A DNA stretch of 64,000 nucleotides from the IMG/VR virus record IMGVR_UViG_3300018405_000011. One strand, 5' to 3'. Origin of the DNA: a virus. Its lineage: Duplodnaviria > Caudoviricetes. This document shows positions 43,415 through 59,382 of the stretch, piece after piece (position 1 is the stretch's first letter; the number at the start of each line of letters is the position of its first letter). The notes under the pieces were generated by a model that saw only the letters and a program-made list of their open reading frames with translations, was not told where the DNA came from and made no database searches. The translations under genes were made by a program, and so were the position numbers.

Positions 43415-44620
43415 ATGTCTAAGTCAGTATTAAAACAAGCCATTATGGCGACACTCGCAGCCTCGTCAGAAATCAGTTCTGTAGAAGCAGCACAAGAAAC
43501 CATTGCGAGTTTCCAACAGGAACAGCGCGAATTTGAAGAAGCGGTAGAGCTTCATAACAAGCTGGTGACTATCACTGAAAACTGTCGTCCTGCGGACACC
43601 CGTATGGCTATCATTGCTGCTAATGAAGCACTGGGCGCTATTCCAGAACTTCAACTACCAATGGTCTCAATGGAGTCCAGCGCAGAAGACCATTACGAAA
43701 TCGCAATGGAAGGCATCGGTGATATTATCGAGTCTATCTCTAAATTCGTAAAAGAGAAGTTTAAATCTCTAATGGAAAAAGTAGGTAAATTCAAAGATGC
43801 CTTTACTTATGTGTTTAAAGACGAAGCAGAACGTGCTGCTGCACTATTATCTCTGATGGATAAGTCACCGGCGTATGTAGAAGGCGACATTGCTTTACCG
43901 GAGCCACAGGTACATCTGTTCCAGGCGGGCGGTAAGATAATGGATACCTCTAAAGCGATTGGTGACGTTGTGAAACACAACGAAGCAACGTTTAGTCCAA
44001 AAGCGGTTGAAAAAGGTATCGCTGCTATTAAAGCGAATGGTTGGAAAGGCTACGTCGATGGCATGGACGCTATCAGTAAGGTTATGATGGGTCTGGTTAA
44101 AGACTTCGGCATGAAGCCAACGAATGAAATCGGTGATAAGCCGGTGAGTAAGACACACGTTGCTTACCGCACAATGACCAAACTCCCAGCTAACTATTAC
44201 AACTACGTGCTGATGATTGCACGAGTGGTACCTGGCGATAAGCGTGAGTTCTATACGTGGGACCGCGTAGGGTCCATTAACGAAAACGCTAAGTTCGCGA
44301 CTAACAAGGGCGTTTCTGTAATGCCTGCATTAAAAGAAGCCGAACTTAAGAAAGTCCTTACTGCCATTAAGGATGGTTCTTCATCTAACGTAGAGCGAGT
44401 GCAAGCCATCTCTAACTGGGCACGTAACCTAGACGGTTTCTTTGATGCCTTCTTTAAGCAGATGGAAGATTTGACACTAACCAAAGAAGAAGTAAACCGC
44501 CTGTATACAGATGTGTATAGCCTAGCAACGTTTAGCTTCTACGCTATGTCAGATAATTTAGACTATCATGACCGTGTGTTTGGTGCTTATCTAAGCGTTG
44601 CAAAACGTCACTTTAAATAA
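43415..44620 (+). CDS. Internal head protein, gp93-family paralog outside the head cluster
   Basis: Acidic propeptide with VSMES (84-88) and IAMEG (96-100), then a helical IGDIIESISKFVKEKF segment as in the 10447 gene. Confidence 0.65.
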   Translation: MSKSVLKQAIMATLAASSEISSVEAAQETIASFQQEQREFEEAVELHNKLVTITENCRPADTRMAIIAANEALGAIPELQLPMVSMESSAEDHYEIAMEGIGDIIESISKFVKEKFKSLMEKVGKFKDAFTYVFKDEAERAAALLSLMDKSPAYVEGDIALPEPQVHLFQAGGKIMDTSKAIGDVVKHNEATFSPKAVEKGIAAIKANGWKGYVDGMDAISKVMMGLVKDFGMKPTNEIGDKPVSKTHVAYRTMTKLPANYYNYVLMIARVVPGDKREFYTWDRVGSINENAKFATNKGVSVMPALKEAELKKVLTAIKDGSSSNVERVQAISNWARNLDGFFDAFFKQMEDLTLTKEEVNRLYTDVYSLATFSFYAMSDNLDYHDRVFGAYLSVAKRHFK

Positions 44621-44626
44621 ACCATA

Positions 44627-44666
44627 ATTAATAGTCCTAGGAGCATCGGCTCCTAGGACTATTAAT
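44627..44666. terminator. Bidirectional terminator
   Basis: 18 bp stem ATTAATAGTCCTAGGAGC / GCTCCTAGGACTATTAAT between convergent genes. Confidence 0.85.
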
Positions 44667-44680
44667 GCTATTTCTCTTTT

Positions 44681-45382
44681 TTAATCTTTTTCAAAAGTAA
44701 CCAGGTGGTAATTCTGCTTACCGCTGATGATGTCAGTAGCCTCCCAGCCAAACCTATACCCCCATAGGGTAAAGACTTTAAAGGTTAGTAATGGGTTGTC
44801 CGTTTCGTACTGGTAGTACTTTGCATTGTATGCAGTATTACGCATTGTCCAGAATGTCGAACAGATGAAGTTAAAGTAGGCGTTCTTACCACCCCTTAAG
44901 TTTCCTAGTTCAAAGGTATTGCCGAACAATACATTCTTTTCAATATACTCGACTTGCTTAGCGATATGGCCACGGAACGGTTTACCAATGACTGGGTAGT
45001 GTTCCCCGGTAACGATTTTCTTTAGGAAACCTAAATCTACGGTATCGTAGTTAGAGTCGTCGTCTACCCAAATCCATACCGCCCAGTACCAGAACTGGAA
45101 GGTTAACCACCCTATATGCTCCTTAGGTACCTCACCTCCCATCTCAAAGCGCGTAGACTGAAGTAGCCATAGTGTTTCCTTAGAAACGGGATGGCGCTCA
45201 TAGAGACGCTTTAACCAACGCTGTTCTTGTAGGATATAGTTATAGACGTAATAACGTGCAGGTTCACGGAACCACACTACACACCAATACACAGGCACGC
45301 CGACGACTTTACGGATGCCGGTAATCGAAGTTACCATAAAAAAATAAATGTAACGATAAAAGAAATAAAAGAGTTCTTTCAT
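44681..45382 (-). CDS. Hypothetical aromatic-rich, probably membrane-associated protein
   Basis: ATG 45382 with GGGAG upstream on the minus strand; Trp/Tyr/Phe-rich; WTMRNTAY motif. Confidence 0.55.
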   Translation of the reverse strand: MKELFYFFYRYIYFFMVTSITGIRKVVGVPVYWCVVWFREPARYYVYNYILQEQRWLKRLYERHPVSKETLWLLQSTRFEMGGEVPKEHIGWLTFQFWYWAVWIWVDDDSNYDTVDLGFLKKIVTGEHYPVIGKPFRGHIAKQVEYIEKNVLFGNTFELGNLRGGKNAYFNFICSTFWTMRNTAYNAKYYQYETDNPLLTFKVFTLWGYRFGWEATDIISGKQNYHLVTFEKD

Positions 45383-45501
45383 TAAGGGCTCCCTAGCCAT
45401 GGTTAATGTTATCATAGTGATGTAAACCACCCATGGGATTCCTAAAGGTAAATATTAACGATACGCAAACATCCCATGTTACTGATAAAAGAGGAAAGGT
45501 T

Positions 45502-46209
45502 ATGAAAGATAAACTGACTGAGTTTTTAAATGCAAACCCAGAAGTAATGCAAGACTGGTTAGAAGGCGGCAGTAATATAAAGTCTGTCTATAAATCCCTC
45601 ATTCGTGAACAACTGGGCAATCCAGTTATATTCTTAGATGTAGATGAAGTCATACAAGTTCATCGTGCTCACTTACAGGGTCTCATGATAGACCCCGTTG
45701 CTGTAGAGCTGATTCAGAGACTCTGTGACCTAACGGGGGCGAGAATTGTCTATGCTAGCGTATGGGGTACCTTTATGAACGATGGTATTACGGCGTCTTC
45801 TATTCACGAAGCGTTTGGCTTTAAAGGAATGTCATTGATGCAGACTGCGGATGGCACAGAAATGCCATGGCGTCTAGAATCCGTAACTGGAAGTGGTAAC
45901 CGTGGACGCTCTGTTCAGAAGTATCTGGCTGATAACCCACACATTAAAAACTATGTCGTTATTGATGACAGTTGGTCTGATTACATGGAAATACTGGATA
46001 AGGTCGTTGCACCAGACGGCATTGAAGGCTTCGGCGTTCGTGACTTCTACCGTGCTAAAGACATACTCGTACACGGACAGGTTCGCTCACCTGAAGAGAC
46101 ACGTCTGCCCTTTATTTACCCGCACCGTTCTCAAGGTTGCGTACGTGATATGAAAACGCCATTAGAAATCTGGCAGCTAGAACAACAAATTAAAGATAAG
46201 GAAAGCTAA
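45502..46209 (+). CDS. HAD-superfamily phosphatase, Swiss-Army-Knife RNA-repair-like type
   Basis: FLDVDEVI (DxD), IVYASVW, RG..VQKYL, YVVIDDS; ATG 45502 after GAGGAAAGG. Confidence 0.7.
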   Translation: MKDKLTEFLNANPEVMQDWLEGGSNIKSVYKSLIREQLGNPVIFLDVDEVIQVHRAHLQGLMIDPVAVELIQRLCDLTGARIVYASVWGTFMNDGITASSIHEAFGFKGMSLMQTADGTEMPWRLESVTGSGNRGRSVQKYLADNPHIKNYVVIDDSWSDYMEILDKVVAPDGIEGFGVRDFYRAKDILVHGQVRSPEETRLPFIYPHRSQGCVRDMKTPLEIWQLEQQIKDKES

Positions 46210-46793
46210 TGTTAGATAAGAAATGTAAAATGTGTCTTAAAGAAGGCATGGTCTATGACGAACGTGGTTCCGTGGACCGACATGTTGTGATGGGACACTG
46301 CGGGCATTGTGGTGCGCTTGTGCGTAAGCAAACCAAACCTATGGTGTCCATGGAAACATGGTTAAACATAAAGGATGAAGTATTAGTCCTTAATGAAGCA
46401 GAGTCTGACGGGTATTGGGATAAACACGCGGCGCTTAATAAGGCACTGGAGTACCTTAAAACCAACGAAGTCTGCACGACTTGTCATACAGGACACGTGG
46501 AACCTTATGCCGACCTTAGCTTAGGTGAAGAGCCTACACCGCTGATACTCTATCGTAAGTGTGGAAACCCAGACTGCGCATCCGAACCAGTAGTTTTTAC
46601 GGATGACGAATCCGACGTTCGCGTGATCATTGACTGTTTACGTGGCATGGAGAACCCAATTGCCGTAAGTCTGTCCGTGTTATACGAAGCCCGTTTATTA
46701 GGGTTTAAAGTACATGACGACGAAGGTCACTACTTAGACATCGATTTTCTGGCACAGCAAATAATGGAGCACGCTAATGATCATCAGCAGTAA
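46209..46793 (+). CDS. Multi-zinc-ribbon protein
   Basis: CKMC, CGHC, CTTC, CGNPDC; TAATG coupling to the HAD gene. Confidence 0.6.
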   Translation: MLDKKCKMCLKEGMVYDERGSVDRHVVMGHCGHCGALVRKQTKPMVSMETWLNIKDEVLVLNEAESDGYWDKHAALNKALEYLKTNEVCTTCHTGHVEPYADLSLGEEPTPLILYRKCGNPDCASEPVVFTDDESDVRVIIDCLRGMENPIAVSLSVLYEARLLGFKVHDDEGHYLDIDFLAQQIMEHANDHQQ

Positions 46794-47781
46794 GCATGAC
46801 GTAGACAGTCACGTCTACAACTACATCCATGACAGTGGCGTACAGACTACCGTTAAAGTCTCACCATCGGGTCACTACCGCCAGGACAACTTAGACCGAA
46901 CACAACCGGTTACTCAAGATAAACGTAAATACTCGGTTATCATCTCTTCGTCTGTAGGCTGCCCTTTAAGCTGTCAGTTCTGTCATCTAACCTTACTGAA
47001 TAAACCGCATCGTGCGCTGAGTCATAAGGAAATCACGGATAACGTACTGGAAGCGATTCACGTCACCCGTGACCATGAAGACTTAAGTAGTCGCTATATC
47101 AAGCTCTGCTTTATGGGGGAAGGGGAAGCCATCCTAAACATCAGTAATGTCCGAATAGCGGCACTGGACATCATTAGTGGCGTAATGGAGCGAGGATGGG
47201 CAGCGGGGTTAGACGGTGTAGACATCGCCACCGCTTTCCCAAATGTAGGGGTAGGGAAACTCTACGAAATCATCGCCTTTAACCATGAGCTTTCTGTTAA
47301 GTGGCCTCTAAATCCGCATAACTACGAACTAAACGTTCGTGGGGAGTTTAGGTCAGTCGTCCGCTTGTTCTACTCAATGCACCATTCTAACGATGTCGAC
47401 AGAGCGAAGCTCATGCCGGGCACGGCACCACTAAGCGACGCATTACGCCGACTAGGCACCATTGCCAACAGTTCGGTAAACTTAGTTATCCACTACATGT
47501 TTATTGAAGGGGTTAATGACAGCTCAGACCAAGTCAATGAACTGGTCAATCTCATTAATGGGTTAGAGTATGCGTATAAGATACAGTTTAGAATCTTACG
47601 CTATAACCCGCCTAATGCAGATACTCGTGAAAGTCCTAGACTAAAAGACATTGTCAGTTATCTACAAGACGACTTAGCCGTGGACTTTATTAAGGTACAG
47701 TATTCTGCAGGTGAAGCTATTAAAGGTGCATGCGGGATGTTTATGGACGATATGGTCGAGGTTACTCATGGCAAAGCCTAA
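46777..47781 (+). CDS. Cfr/RlmN-family radical SAM enzyme (putative RNA methyltransferase), divergent active site
   Basis: SSSVGCPLSCQFC (CX3CX2C), FMGEGEA, SMHH..D..RAKLMP, GVNDS, RYNP, GACG (C-terminal Cys). Confidence 0.8.
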   Translation: MIISSKHDVDSHVYNYIHDSGVQTTVKVSPSGHYRQDNLDRTQPVTQDKRKYSVIISSSVGCPLSCQFCHLTLLNKPHRALSHKEITDNVLEAIHVTRDHEDLSSRYIKLCFMGEGEAILNISNVRIAALDIISGVMERGWAAGLDGVDIATAFPNVGVGKLYEIIAFNHELSVKWPLNPHNYELNVRGEFRSVVRLFYSMHHSNDVDRAKLMPGTAPLSDALRRLGTIANSSVNLVIHYMFIEGVNDSSDQVNELVNLINGLEYAYKIQFRILRYNPPNADTRESPRLKDIVSYLQDDLAVDFIKVQYSAGEAIKGACGMFMDDMVEVTHGKA

Positions 47782-51539: not shown

Positions 51540-51554
51540 GGTAGACTGATAGAT

Positions 51555-51588
51555 ACAGGGAGTAGCACTGCGCTACTCCCTGTGTTTC
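51555..51588 (+). terminator. Intrinsic terminator
   Basis: ACAGGGAGTAGC / GCTACTCCCTGT plus GTTT. Confidence 0.75.
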
Positions 51589-55177: not shown

Positions 55178-55666
55178 ATGAATACTAATATGACAAAACC
55201 AATTGCAATTATTTGCATTGGTCCTGGGTGTTCAGGGAAGTCTACCTTTGCTCGCAAACTGGTTGCGGAAAAGCAATTTGTCGAAGTGAACCGCGACAGC
55301 ATTCGTTTTCCTGATGGGGTTATCGATTGGTCAAAGTGGGAAAGCACTCCAGCTAACGAGCAGGAAGTAACGGACGACTGGAACCGTCGCTTAGATAATG
55401 CAATTTGCTTAGGTAAGAACATTGTTATTAGTGATACTAATTTAAATGTTAATCGCCGTGAAGAATATTTGTCACGCAAGCTTACCTTAGCGGGCTACGA
55501 AGTAGAACTGAAGTACTTTGTAGAAAATCTACTTACTCTATTGACGCGCAATGCCGAGCGCGATAAAGACGCTCTGCCTGAAGAAGTTATCGTTTCGCAG
55601 CAACGGAGACTACTCCGTGAACTAATGGACGAAGCCGATGACGTTTTAGCTTCCATTCGTAACTAA
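55178..55666 (+). CDS. Polynucleotide 5'-kinase domain (T4 PseT N-terminal-like), without the phosphatase domain
   Basis: GPGCSGKST, VNRDSIR, VISDTNLN, RNAER...LPE.VI parallel the T4 PNK kinase module. Confidence 0.8.
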   Translation: MNTNMTKPIAIICIGPGCSGKSTFARKLVAEKQFVEVNRDSIRFPDGVIDWSKWESTPANEQEVTDDWNRRLDNAICLGKNIVISDTNLNVNRREEYLSRKLTLAGYEVELKYFVENLLTLLTRNAERDKDALPEEVIVSQQRRLLRELMDEADDVLASIRN

Positions 55667-57996: not shown

Positions 57997-59382
57997 TTAC
58001 TTTTTAATAATGGTTTGCTCTGCACGGCGGGTGTCTAAGACGTCATTACCCTTTCTATTTATATAAAGAGGGAAGTTACAGAACGTAGCTAATGCGTTAC
58101 CCATGTTAATGGCCACTTCGCGCACTGTAGCGTGGCAATTGACCCCAGACCTGAGCTCGGCCACGTAGACCGCATTGTCAATCGGATACGACGCTTCTAC
58201 GTCGACTAGAGAACCCATAGGTAACATGTATTCTATGTCTTCGGACGGAATCCCTAAAGCACGTAACTGGCTAGCTGCGGCGTGGACTTCACCCAAGATA
58301 ACATTAACGTCATCATAAACGCCCGCATTAGCGAATTGCTCACGGTACCAACTATGCAAGGTACCTGCTTCCATTAGACTACGACGAATGTTCCCTTTAC
58401 GGTGACGGTTTAAATCACGGAAACCACCAAAGTCGATACTATAAGCAAAGCTAGCACGCCCATAGTGACCAATATCGTCTGGTAAACGAGCGTGTCTAGG
58501 GCGTTCCCACAACTTTAGGTCACGTGTGTAGCTGTCTAATCCATCCACATCTAAAGTGTTTAGATTTAGAGAGATTAAGCCTTCTGGTACAGAACCGTCG
58601 TCGTTTAATAGGAACCCGGAATGTTTTGTCAACCAGTCATTAGACGCAGCATCTTTTACAGTGAAAGAGCTTGGGTACTCGGCAAGCATTGCTTCTAGTA
58701 TATCAGATGCCATCTGACGAACTTCTAGGTTAGAATGATTTGCTAAAATACCGATGACCTGACGGAAGTTCTCTAAGTTACCATCCCATACCCCAACTGT
58801 TTTAAGCCCTGACGGTAACAAAGAACGACAAATATCGAATGAACGTGGGCGTACAGTAGCTTCCCATTTAGCATCACTCACGTCGTCTGGCTTTTCTAAG
58901 TTGGCCATTAGGGAATCATAAACACGGTCTAGTACACGGGTATACGTAGCCATAAGTATGTCAGTGATGCGTAAATATGTCTCTAGCGCATCTGGGTGAG
59001 CTTGAATGCTTTCTGGGATAACAACGTTCTCAGCAGAGAATGGAATATAGCGAGTGGACGATTCCTGACCTGCATAGAGTGGATTTAAGTTCTGTAGATG
59101 GTTGATAGCAATCATAGAAATGCCCGTAATGAAAACCTTGGAGCTTGAGCACTTGCCAATTGAGTCATGTCCGTAACCTATTAGGTATGTAGACATAAAC
59201 TTATCAGCGCCTTCGCGCATTACTTTCTCTAAGTTCGCTCTAGGCCCATCCTTAGAGCGGCTACATAAAGCAGACAACATTGCCGAGGCTTCAGCATTCA
59301 TGCCGTACTTTGCTGAATCCACAACAGTAATAGTTAGGTTCTTTGCTTCTTGATTAAACGAGTTATTTCCACTCATTGTCAT
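57997..59382 (-). CDS. thyX: Flavin-dependent thymidylate synthase, tandem-domain type
   Basis: GYGHDSI, QESSTRY, DICRSLLP (domain 1) and DFGGFRDLNRHR, YMLPMG, Y..ELRS (domain 2). Confidence 0.8.
   Translation of the reverse strand: MTMSGNNSFNQEAKNLTITVVDSAKYGMNAEASAMLSALCSRSKDGPRANLEKVMREGADKFMSTYLIGYGHDSIGKCSSSKVFITGISMIAINHLQNLNPLYAGQESSTRYIPFSAENVVIPESIQAHPDALETYLRITDILMATYTRVLDRVYDSLMANLEKPDDVSDAKWEATVRPRSFDICRSLLPSGLKTVGVWDGNLENFRQVIGILANHSNLEVRQMASDILEAMLAEYPSSFTVKDAASNDWLTKHSGFLLNDDGSVPEGLISLNLNTLDVDGLDSYTRDLKLWERPRHARLPDDIGHYGRASFAYSIDFGGFRDLNRHRKGNIRRSLMEAGTLHSWYREQFANAGVYDDVNVILGEVHAAASQLRALGIPSEDIEYMLPMGSLVDVEASYPIDNAVYVAELRSGVNCHATVREVAINMGNALATFCNFPLYINRKGNDVLDTRRAEQTIIKK

Follow-up and report, generated by a model that had tools for sequence, protein, structure and literature searches.

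Introduction

The locus described here raises the question of whether a phage protein that resembles the RNA methyl synthases RlmN and Cfr can be a working enzyme of this kind when one of the two cysteines on which their chemistry depends is missing from its usual place. The gene, which we call P0001 together with its product, lies on a stretch of 64,000 nucleotides of viral DNA from IMG/VR record IMGVR_UViG_3300018405_000011 that is referred to as the window below. RlmN (YfgB of Escherichia coli; PDB 3RFA, 5HR7, and 6FZ6) is the methyl synthase that forms m2A2503 in 23S rRNA and m2A37 in tRNA, while Cfr (PDB 9P0P) forms m8A2503 in 23S rRNA. To our knowledge, these two enzymes are the only characterized class A radical S-adenosylmethionine (SAM) methyl synthases, and a two-cysteine mechanism with a carrier (C355 in RlmN) and a resolving cysteine (C118) is treated as defining for them.

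In this mechanism, one SAM methylates the carrier cysteine, which E105 is placed to deprotonate, before the 5'-deoxyadenosyl radical from a second SAM takes a hydrogen atom from the methylated cysteine (PMC9692996; bioRxiv 10.64898/2026.02.27.707579). The methylene radical then adds to C2 or C8 of adenine, and the resulting protein-RNA cross-link is resolved with C118 (C105 in Cfr) as the base that removes the ring proton, followed by radical fragmentation; consequently, RlmN C118A and Cfr C105A or C105S stall as covalent adducts (PMC9692996; bioRxiv 10.64898/2026.02.27.707579).

From the homology, fold, and residue conservation described below we infer the chemistry of P0001. Our preferred reading, to which we give somewhat less than an even chance, is that the protein is a working class-A-type methyl synthase whose second cysteine has been relocated to Cys111 and whose substrate would most likely be RNA.

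A viral protein with the fold of RlmN

The gene and its translation start are defined as follows:

46777..47781, plus strand: RlmN/Cfr-like radical SAM gene P0001 (open reading frame and translation; 334 amino acids, stop codon included in the coordinates)
46766..46769, plus strand: GGAG ribosome-binding site of P0001, 7 nt upstream of the ATG (direct reading)

A scripted check of the translation located all motifs listed in the initial annotation of this DNA, i.e., VQTT (residues 22-25), C62-X3-C66-X2-C69, FMGEGEA (112-118), RAKLMP (209-214), GVNDS (245-249), RYNP (275-278), and GAC319G (317-320), as well as Gln at residue 23 and Ile at residue 55. The protein contains exactly five cysteines at positions 62, 66, 69, 111, and 319.

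The description of P0001 as an RlmN/Cfr-like radical SAM protein is supported by hidden Markov models (HMMs), profile-profile comparison, and structure prediction. The NCBIfam model of RlmN (TIGR00048) matches P0001 with 72.1 bits (E = 3.9e-20; cut-off 290), and the Cfr models (NF000424, TIGR04432) score 66.6 bits against a cut-off of 530 and 63.6 bits against 550 (best E = 2.4e-18; the cut-offs of Cfr HMMs span 468-550 bits), while Pfam Radical_SAM (PF04055) reaches 19 bits, under its cut-off of 29.5. None of 98 diverse members of the family around P0001 gets anywhere near the RlmN or Cfr cut-offs (best RlmN E-value 1.3e-26). Among phage protein families, P0001 falls into PHROG 27142, "Fe-S-cluster redox domain-containing" (E = 8.8e-22). 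Comparison of the whole family with the RlmN profile (hhalign) gave a probability of 99.9% (E = 2.5e-35).

An AlphaFold model of P0001 built from 98 homologues is of high confidence (predicted local distance difference test, pLDDT, 94.9; predicted template modeling score, pTM, 0.92). It aligns best (VIA-align) with RlmN 5HR7 (Z 28.4; root-mean-square deviation 2.7 Å over 265 residues) and the Sphaerobacter RlmN-type enzyme 6FZ6 (Z 27.5), followed by Cfr 9P0P (Z 19.6) and, at Z of about 15, by the pyruvate formate-lyase (PFL) activase and other radical SAM enzymes (PFL-AE 15.8). The CX3CX2C motif, MGEGE at residues 113-117, and the match of the fold to many radical SAM structures place P0001 in the radical SAM superfamily. 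In the structural alignments, P0001 is 23% identical to RlmN and equally 23% identical to Cfr. Judged from sequence and model together, the similarity of P0001 to RlmN and Cfr is one of homology, not of chance.

P0001 had initially been thought to look closer to Cfr than to RlmN. Locally, such matches are indeed seen (KLMP, GVNDS, RYNP, and EITD.VL), but they do not make the protein as a whole any closer to Cfr: RlmN is favored over Cfr by 72 vs. 67 bits and by a structural Z of 28 vs. 20, and RlmN HMMs score equal to or above Cfr HMMs in 98/98 members. We therefore rejected a particular proximity to Cfr.

The structural alignment pairs residues 1-327 of P0001 with residues 81-363 of RlmN and 67-329 of Cfr. 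While the beta-sheet extension is kept in P0001 (strands 2-8, 13-18, and 23-27 by DSSP on the model), the HhH2 RNA-binding N-domain (PF21016, RlmN_N) is missing, with no Pfam match and a model whose first residue corresponds to RlmN residue 81. This loss had been overlooked initially. In RlmN and Cfr, the positively charged surface of this domain is crucial for RNA binding (bioRxiv 10.64898/2026.02.27.707579).

Residue equivalences in the active site

The positions discussed in this and the following sections are listed here along the gene:

46780..46857, plus strand: beta-extension strands with Q23, the probable equivalent of RlmN E105 (DSSP strands, structural alignment range, hhalign)
46939..46941, plus strand: codon of Ile55 at the site of the resolving cysteine (RlmN C118, Cfr C105; phmmer to PDB chains, MAFFT, hhalign)
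46960..46983, plus strand: C62-X3-C66-X2-C69, ligands of the [4Fe-4S] cluster (invariant in 98/98 members)
47107..47109, plus strand: codon of Cys111 on strand beta2 (position of RlmN V174), candidate relocated second cysteine (family comparison, mutual information)
47113..47127, plus strand: M113-G-E115-G-E117, SAM amino-group (GGE-type) motif with E115 in place of the usual Met (RlmN M178)
47491..47493, plus strand: codon of His239 (His in 98/98 members; RlmN has an invariant Glu278)
47590..47610, plus strand: R272-I-L-R-Y-N277-P motif (R272 for the RlmN-invariant N307; N277 corresponds to RlmN N312)
47698..47742, plus strand: Q308-F322, last strand and flexible C-terminal loop with Cys319 (Q308 for the RlmN-invariant R344)

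Alignments made with phmmer against PDB chains, with MAFFT, and with hhalign agree that Cys319 occupies the methyl-carrier position (RlmN C355, Cfr C338), where it is invariant in 187/187 aligned members, and that Ile55 stands where the resolving cysteine would be, just as the initial annotation had it. RlmN and the family have the cluster, SAM, and carrier-loop residues in common, and the SAM-binding motifs MGxGE, T152, S200, N247-D248, and N277 are kept in P0001.

The equivalent of E105 is harder to assign because its register is ambiguous. Unedited hhalign and MAFFT alignments place E105 in a variable, family-specific insert (the L39/D39 region), while hhalign without residues 30-47 pairs K94 with N15 and E105 with Q23 at a score of 253.6 vs. 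253.5 for the other register. Position 23 is Glu in 89/98 and Gln in 9/98 members and is followed by a near-invariant Thr, like the invariant E-T/x-V of RlmN, and positions 15 and 23 rank 6th in covariation among 44,850 pairs by mutual information (MI). We prefer the pairing of Q23 with E105 based on the start of the structural alignment, the Glu-Thr conservation, and the covariation of positions 15 and 23. Gln23 thus most likely replaces RlmN Glu105, with some uncertainty of register. The exchange of Glu105 for Gln proposed earlier is therefore probably right in the better-supported register, though it depends on that choice and most members keep the Glu.

All nine members with Q23 also carry N15 instead of K15 and E115, i.e., MGEGE instead of MGMGE. 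The latter exchange, noted early on, is real but confined to a sub-clade, with E115 in 14/98 members. Five of these still have K15 and E23, so the new carboxylate could have preceded the loss of the old one.

Beyond these sites, several residues that are invariant in RlmN are swapped for other invariant residues in the family: E278 for H239, N307 for R272, R344 for Q308, Q122 for S59, A231 for F198, and L358 for F322. Such a remodeled pocket would fit a family that performed different chemistry, e.g., with C319 as a hydrogen-atom donor or thiyl site in the repair, reduction, or isomerization of damaged RNA or nucleotides, or that activated another protein. Weak matches to glycyl-radical activases besides the Z of PFL-AE (the PFLA HMM hits 18/98 members), a stand-alone glycyl-radical protein and NrdD near some homologues, and the link to RNA-repair genes discussed below point the same way. 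However, RlmN and Cfr share with the family both the loop G-x-[DE]-[IV]-x-A-[AS]-C-G-[QM]-[FL] and M113 (RlmN M176), the structural and profile matches are led by RlmN with a wide margin (Z 28 vs. 16), and the phages that carry NrdD have their own NrdG. We therefore regard different chemistry as unlikely.

A distinct family of phage proteins

Relatives of P0001 were collected with a word-indexed search, which returned 114 proteins, and an exhaustive search, in which 83 representatives passed E < 1e-30 and 222 passed E < 1e-10, amounting to about 190 sequence clusters. From these we used 98 members for conservation, 107 full-length members for the position seven residues before the first cluster cysteine (the -7 position, Ile55 in P0001), and 187 aligned members for cysteine sites. 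Nearly all relatives are 300-350 amino acids long and encoded on phage-sized contigs, and ESM Atlas clusters are 75-100% viral. No additional Pfam domain is recognizable in the longer members P0176, P0194, P0200, and P0104. A full-text search of the literature found no description of the family, nor was one found in the comparative genomics paper on jumbo phages PMC7824862.

At the -7 position, the full-length members have Phe (62), Ile (23), or Val (22) and in no case Cys, while the equivalent of C355 is invariant; across the family as a whole, this residue is F, V, I, M, or L, never Cys. A maximum-likelihood tree resolves three well-separated clades, namely the P0001 family (support 100/99), true RlmN (100/99), and a phage "Tyr-type" group (100/100). 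The sister of the P0001 family on this tree is the short protein P0197, which keeps Cys at -7, so that this cysteine was lost once and the gene has been retained ever since.

The family can be recognized by a length of about 300-350 amino acids, an N-terminal hairpin with K-Y-I-H / D-G-S-E-T-x-I-K, F/I/V at -7, H239, R272, Q308-x-S310, and A-C-G-[QM]-F; P0001 shows all of these features except that it has N15 and Q23 for K15 and E23. The "rewiring" of the active site, which had been presented as a peculiarity of this gene, is therefore the hallmark of a whole viral clade, with MGEGE and Q23 as traits of a sub-clade that accompany N15. Because P0001 lacks four features that define RlmN and Cfr (the beta1 cysteine, E105 in the case of its sub-clade, the N-domain, and scores above the HMM cut-offs), we set it outside these enzymes. 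On sequence grounds, we would assign it to a separate family that is mostly phage-borne and uncharacterized.

The loss of two residues that are regarded as essential in RlmN (C118 and, in the P0001 sub-clade, E105) might also be taken to mean that these proteins are decayed relics or non-catalytic pseudoenzymes. We consider this hardly credible given the intact reading frame, the confidently predicted structure, and the conservation across so many sequence clusters: in the 98 members, 19 positions are invariant and 25 others nearly so, with the cluster and SAM motifs all among them.

A second cysteine that changes its place

The initial annotation had suggested that another cysteine, C111, might stand in for the resolving one, and the family comparison lends support to this idea. 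Residue 111 lies two positions before the Met of MGxGE, where RlmN has V174. It is Cys in 63/63 proteins with an aliphatic residue at -7, P0001 included, while Ser is found in three short sister proteins with Cys at -7, Val in RlmN, and Asn or Asp in the Tyr clade.

More generally, the non-cluster columns richest in cysteine among the 187 aligned members are 279 (102 members), 111 (91), and 32 (79). At least one of these three sites is Cys in 184/187 members, leaving three without any, where 25 would be expected under independence. Parsimony on the family tree requires at least 21 changes at position 279, at least 10 at 111, and at least 15 at 32, with at least 38 changes between combined states, and yet the presence of at least one Cys among the three was lost just twice. 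Top co-varying pairs by MI include 32-55 (rank 4), 55-111 (rank 46 of 44850), 34-111, 55-309, 32-311, 279-313, and 74-279, and positions 32, 55, 111, 279, and 309-313 are linked by covariation into a network that surrounds the C319 loop. These pairs suggest that a single spatial cluster is centered on residue 55 and on the strand that leads to C319. The cysteine pattern would be expected of a family in which a second thiol close to the carrier loop is functionally required while its anchor point is flexible; it supports C111 in this role for P0001 and speaks against a designed failure of release.

This pattern also bears on a different proposal from the initial annotation, i.e., that the protein is a deliberate single-turnover cross-linker that, without a beta1 cysteine, stalls as a covalent adduct and thereby blocks or marks host rRNA or tRNA. 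The idea draws on the stalling of the RlmN and Cfr cysteine mutants and on the absence of the canonical cysteine from every family member, with the E105 equivalent changed as well in the sub-clade of P0001. However, a cysteine at 111, 279, or 32 has been under sustained selection throughout all these state changes, and such selection is hard to explain for a cross-linker if release is unwanted. Moreover, to matter against abundant tRNA or rRNA, a trap acting stoichiometrically would have to be expressed at very high levels. The gene is part of an ordinary operon of several genes. The proposal is weakened by these points, and we now rate it as quite improbable. We would give slightly less credence still to its sharpened form, a stoichiometric covalent trap that disables host tRNA or rRNA as a phage weapon, or to a milder variant with regulated release in which Cys111 would serve as a redox-gated switch.

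Proposed mechanism and substrate

For P0001 as a methyl synthase with a relocated cysteine, we envisage that one SAM would methylate C319 and that the 5'-deoxyadenosyl radical from a second SAM would turn methyl-C319 into a methylene radical, which would add to a nucleobase at an sp2 carbon. The resulting covalent adduct would then be resolved by Cys111 on the neighboring strand beta2, acting as base or thiyl partner, instead of by a cysteine on beta1, and in other family members Cys279 or Cys32 may play this role. Where the equivalent of E105 is Gln23, Glu115 of MGEGE may take over the activation of the carrier cysteine. The substrate would most likely be RNA, with tRNA ahead of rRNA, recognized in a way other than by RlmN and modified during infection, possibly in connection with host conflicts over RNA damage and repair.

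The connection to RNA repair comes from the neighborhoods of family genes. Both in the window and in L029, the family gene shares its operon with a HAD_SAK_2 phosphatase of the RNA-repair type. In one lineage the family gene directly precedes Rnl1 and PNKP (L004), in two loci an RNA ligase lies 0.5-1.1 kb away (G004 and G005), and in three others RlaP lies at 1.5-2.2 kb (G010, G011, and G013). Farther away, a PNKP / RNA ligase / RlaP cluster is found at 5-8 kb (L025), separate genes for PNKP, RlaP, and RNA ligase at 7-11 kb (L026), and RlaP and RNA ligase at 5.5-6 kb in a locus where YqeY adjoins the family gene (L037). Other neighborhoods are devoted to nucleotide metabolism or replication. 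All-against-all clustering of open reading frames from 28 loci revealed no partner gene conserved across lineages except for PNKP (4 lineages) and PhoH (3).

Several observations weigh against our reading, both regarding the relocated cysteine and regarding RNA. Cfr C105S is inactive and cross-links, which implies a demanding geometry of the resolving site (bioRxiv 10.64898/2026.02.27.707579). As many as 99 members with Phe at -7 have Ser at position 111, and P0054, P0064, and P0127 have no Cys at 32, 111, or 279, so that a second cysteine is not universal. The proximity of C111 to I55 and C319 is deduced from covariation and strand register. With respect to the substrate, an unbiased distance test for proximity to RNA-repair genes on nine whole-contig lineages gave Fisher p = 0.15, and most contigs with a family gene have no PNKP. 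The family lacks the N-terminal RNA-binding domain and is less basic than RlmN (median isoelectric point 6.7 vs. 8.8; the net charge of P0001 is -7). Finally, bacterial structural neighbors in the ESM Atlas fuse a short RlmN-like domain to a cytidine/dCMP deaminase (491 amino acids, Bacillota) or, in another case, to NUDIX (475 amino acids, Myxococcota), which would fit a small-nucleotide substrate and hints at nucleotides as the substrates of some short RlmN-like enzymes. As a separate observation on cysteine content, P0054 and P0064 have no cysteines other than the three of the cluster and the carrier.

The linkage to RNA repair was consequently rejected as proof of an RNA substrate and kept as a lead. 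The same observations on domain content, charge, and fusions favor a possible, if doubtful, alternative in which C319 as carrier and a relocated cysteine perform the same chemistry on DNA or on a nucleotide or dinucleotide, be it free or bound to a protein (an adenine nucleotide, an NAD-type molecule, or a signaling nucleotide). The genes for thymidylate kinase (tmk) in the window, NrdD/NrdG and a PARP or ADP-ribosyl enzyme (Klebsiella phage 05F01 and L037), ribonucleotide reductase (L030), PRPP synthetase and NAPRTase (L026), and nucleoside phosphorylase (L034) near family members point in this direction as well. However, none of these partners is conserved across lineages, L026 represents a distant member (28% identity), and the fused proteins are structural neighbors whose membership of the P0001 clade is not established. 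In addition, all characterized members of the superfamily act on RNA, and RNA-repair genes recur nearby, too.

Since the proximity to repair genes comes with p = 0.15 and few PNKP-bearing contigs, and given low basicity and the Atlas fusions, we rank RNA (tRNA first) as the most likely substrate of a relocated-cysteine enzyme and a small nucleotide or DNA as a serious rival; this ranking is the weakest part of our reading.

Genomic setting

The window consists of DNA from a phiKZ-like jumbo phage, encoding a 706-amino-acid major head protein (PHROG 3231) and virion proteins along with a phiKZ-type internal head protein and a DnaB-like helicase. The head and virion proteins bear out the early view that P0001 is a phage gene. 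Among named phages, Vibrio phage vB_VmeM-Yong has the most similar capsid (63%), but no homologue of P0001 from it was found among tblastn matches, and no named phage was found to carry DNA near-identical to the window. The record that contains the window is a 62.7-kb fragment with an estimated completeness of 22%, and the P0001 protein is also present on a 215-kb contig. Three nearby genes are relevant here:

45433..46209, plus strand: HAD phosphatase of the RNA-repair "Swiss Army Knife" type (HAD_SAK_2, PF18143; Pfam E = 5.6e-15), first gene of the operon
46209..46793, plus strand: 194-amino-acid Cys-rich Zn-ribbon-like protein with several CxxC pairs, translationally coupled to the P0001 gene
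55178..55666, plus strand: stand-alone polynucleotide-kinase-type P-loop domain, 162 amino acids, kinase only (PF13671, E = 6e-13)

The operon comprises, in this order, genes for the HAD_SAK_2 phosphatase, the Zn-ribbon-like protein, the radical SAM protein, several unknown proteins, and thymidylate kinase, and the P0001 gene starts 17 nt inside the Zn-ribbon-like gene. The 194-amino-acid protein has no match in Pfam or PHROG. Its gene is conserved alongside the radical SAM gene in the locus of a 65% identical relative (L029), where the operon likewise begins with the HAD_SAK_2 phosphatase. The Zn-ribbon-like protein could be a nucleic-acid-binding partner that replaces the lost N-domain in trans.

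Strong hairpins flank the operon at 44627-44666 and 51551-51587. The first has a perfect 18-bp stem with 7 G-C pairs and a 4-nt loop and separates the convergent genes 43415-44620 (plus strand) and 44681-45430 (minus strand), so that by its sequence it reads as a terminator for both strands. The second (16 bp) lies 3' of tmk at the end of the operon.

The kinase-only P-loop gene is found 7.4 kb downstream of the radical SAM gene, and its product is homologous to the kinase half of the PNKPs near family members in L004, L025, and L026 (35-38% identity by BLASTP). A PNKP-like end-healing enzyme is thus split in the window, with the HAD_SAK_2 phosphatase (45433-46209) apart from the kinase (55178-55666). 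No RNA ligase (PF09414 or PF09511) was found in the 62.7-kb record and no tRNA gene in the window. A gene at 57997-59382 (minus strand) encodes a protein of 461 amino acids, far longer than ThyA or ThyX, whose residues 22-224 in the N-terminal part weakly match a thymidylate synthase PHROG (E = 7e-11).

Some other loci of the family deserve mention for their gene content. The radical SAM gene lies between a PARP/ADP-ribosyl-type enzyme and anaerobic NrdD both in L037 (6264-11156) and in Klebsiella phage 05F01 (L002; 4674-9109); these two loci have a separate NrdG further along, while the YqeY domain protein is present in L037 only. On a 422-kb contig, a stand-alone glycyl-radical protein of 130 amino acids (PF01228, GrcA/YfiD-like; L031, 396-788) is encoded at a distance of 9 kb from the radical SAM gene of the family. 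In two distant lineages, the family gene is followed 2 kb downstream by another radical SAM gene that is unrelated to it (L035, 11025-11921; L026, 12549-13538).

Comparison with known systems

The viral clade described here has dispensed with both the beta1 cysteine and the RNA-binding domain and has moved its second cysteine repeatedly among three sites around the carrier loop. If its members are active, then the resolving function would be positionally plastic. The substrate, once found, would add phage-encoded C-methylation of nucleic acids or nucleotides to the modifications made at the time of infection and may be relevant to conflicts in which tRNAs are cleaved and repaired. In any case, the current labels "RlmN", "rRNA methyltransferase", and "Fe-S-cluster redox domain" are unjustified for this family.

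RlmN is the top match of P0001 in sequence, profile, and structure, with the same partial TIM barrel and beta'1-3 extension. In RlmN numbering, they have in common CX3CX2C, S120, M176-G-x-G-E, T212, S233, R242, N286-D287, N312, G348, and A-C355-G. Unlike RlmN, P0001 has no HhH2 N-domain, carries Ile for C118, probably Gln for E105, Cys for V174, His for E278, Arg for N307, and Gln for R344, shows two family-specific insertions at about residues 28-50 and 153-194, and belongs to a separate clade. With Cfr, it shares the fold and would share the class of mechanism, together with local identities at KLMP, GVNDS, RYNP, EITD.VL, and FMG.GEA, but it lacks the equivalent of Cfr C105 and the N-domain and scores far below the HMM cut-offs.

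Among cultured phages, the closest protein is the "radical SAM protein" encoded by gene_104 of Klebsiella phage 05F01 (BBK09218.1; 38% identity over 93%). It is of the same family, with Val at -7, Cys111, and MGEGE, but has kept K15 and E23 and is encoded between an ADP-ribosyl-type enzyme and NrdD instead of in an operon with HAD and Zn-ribbon genes. The short RlmN-like proteins of the Tyr-type, e.g., those of Pseudomonas phage 201phi2-1 (gp434), Psa21, and CcrColossus (PHROG 27142), resemble P0001 in being phage-borne, about 300 amino acids long, and devoid of the N-domain and of a cysteine at -7 while keeping the carrier cysteine. They differ from it by Tyr at -7, Asn or Asp at position 111, and M-A-R-G-E instead of M-G-M-G-E, and share about 24% identity with P0001.

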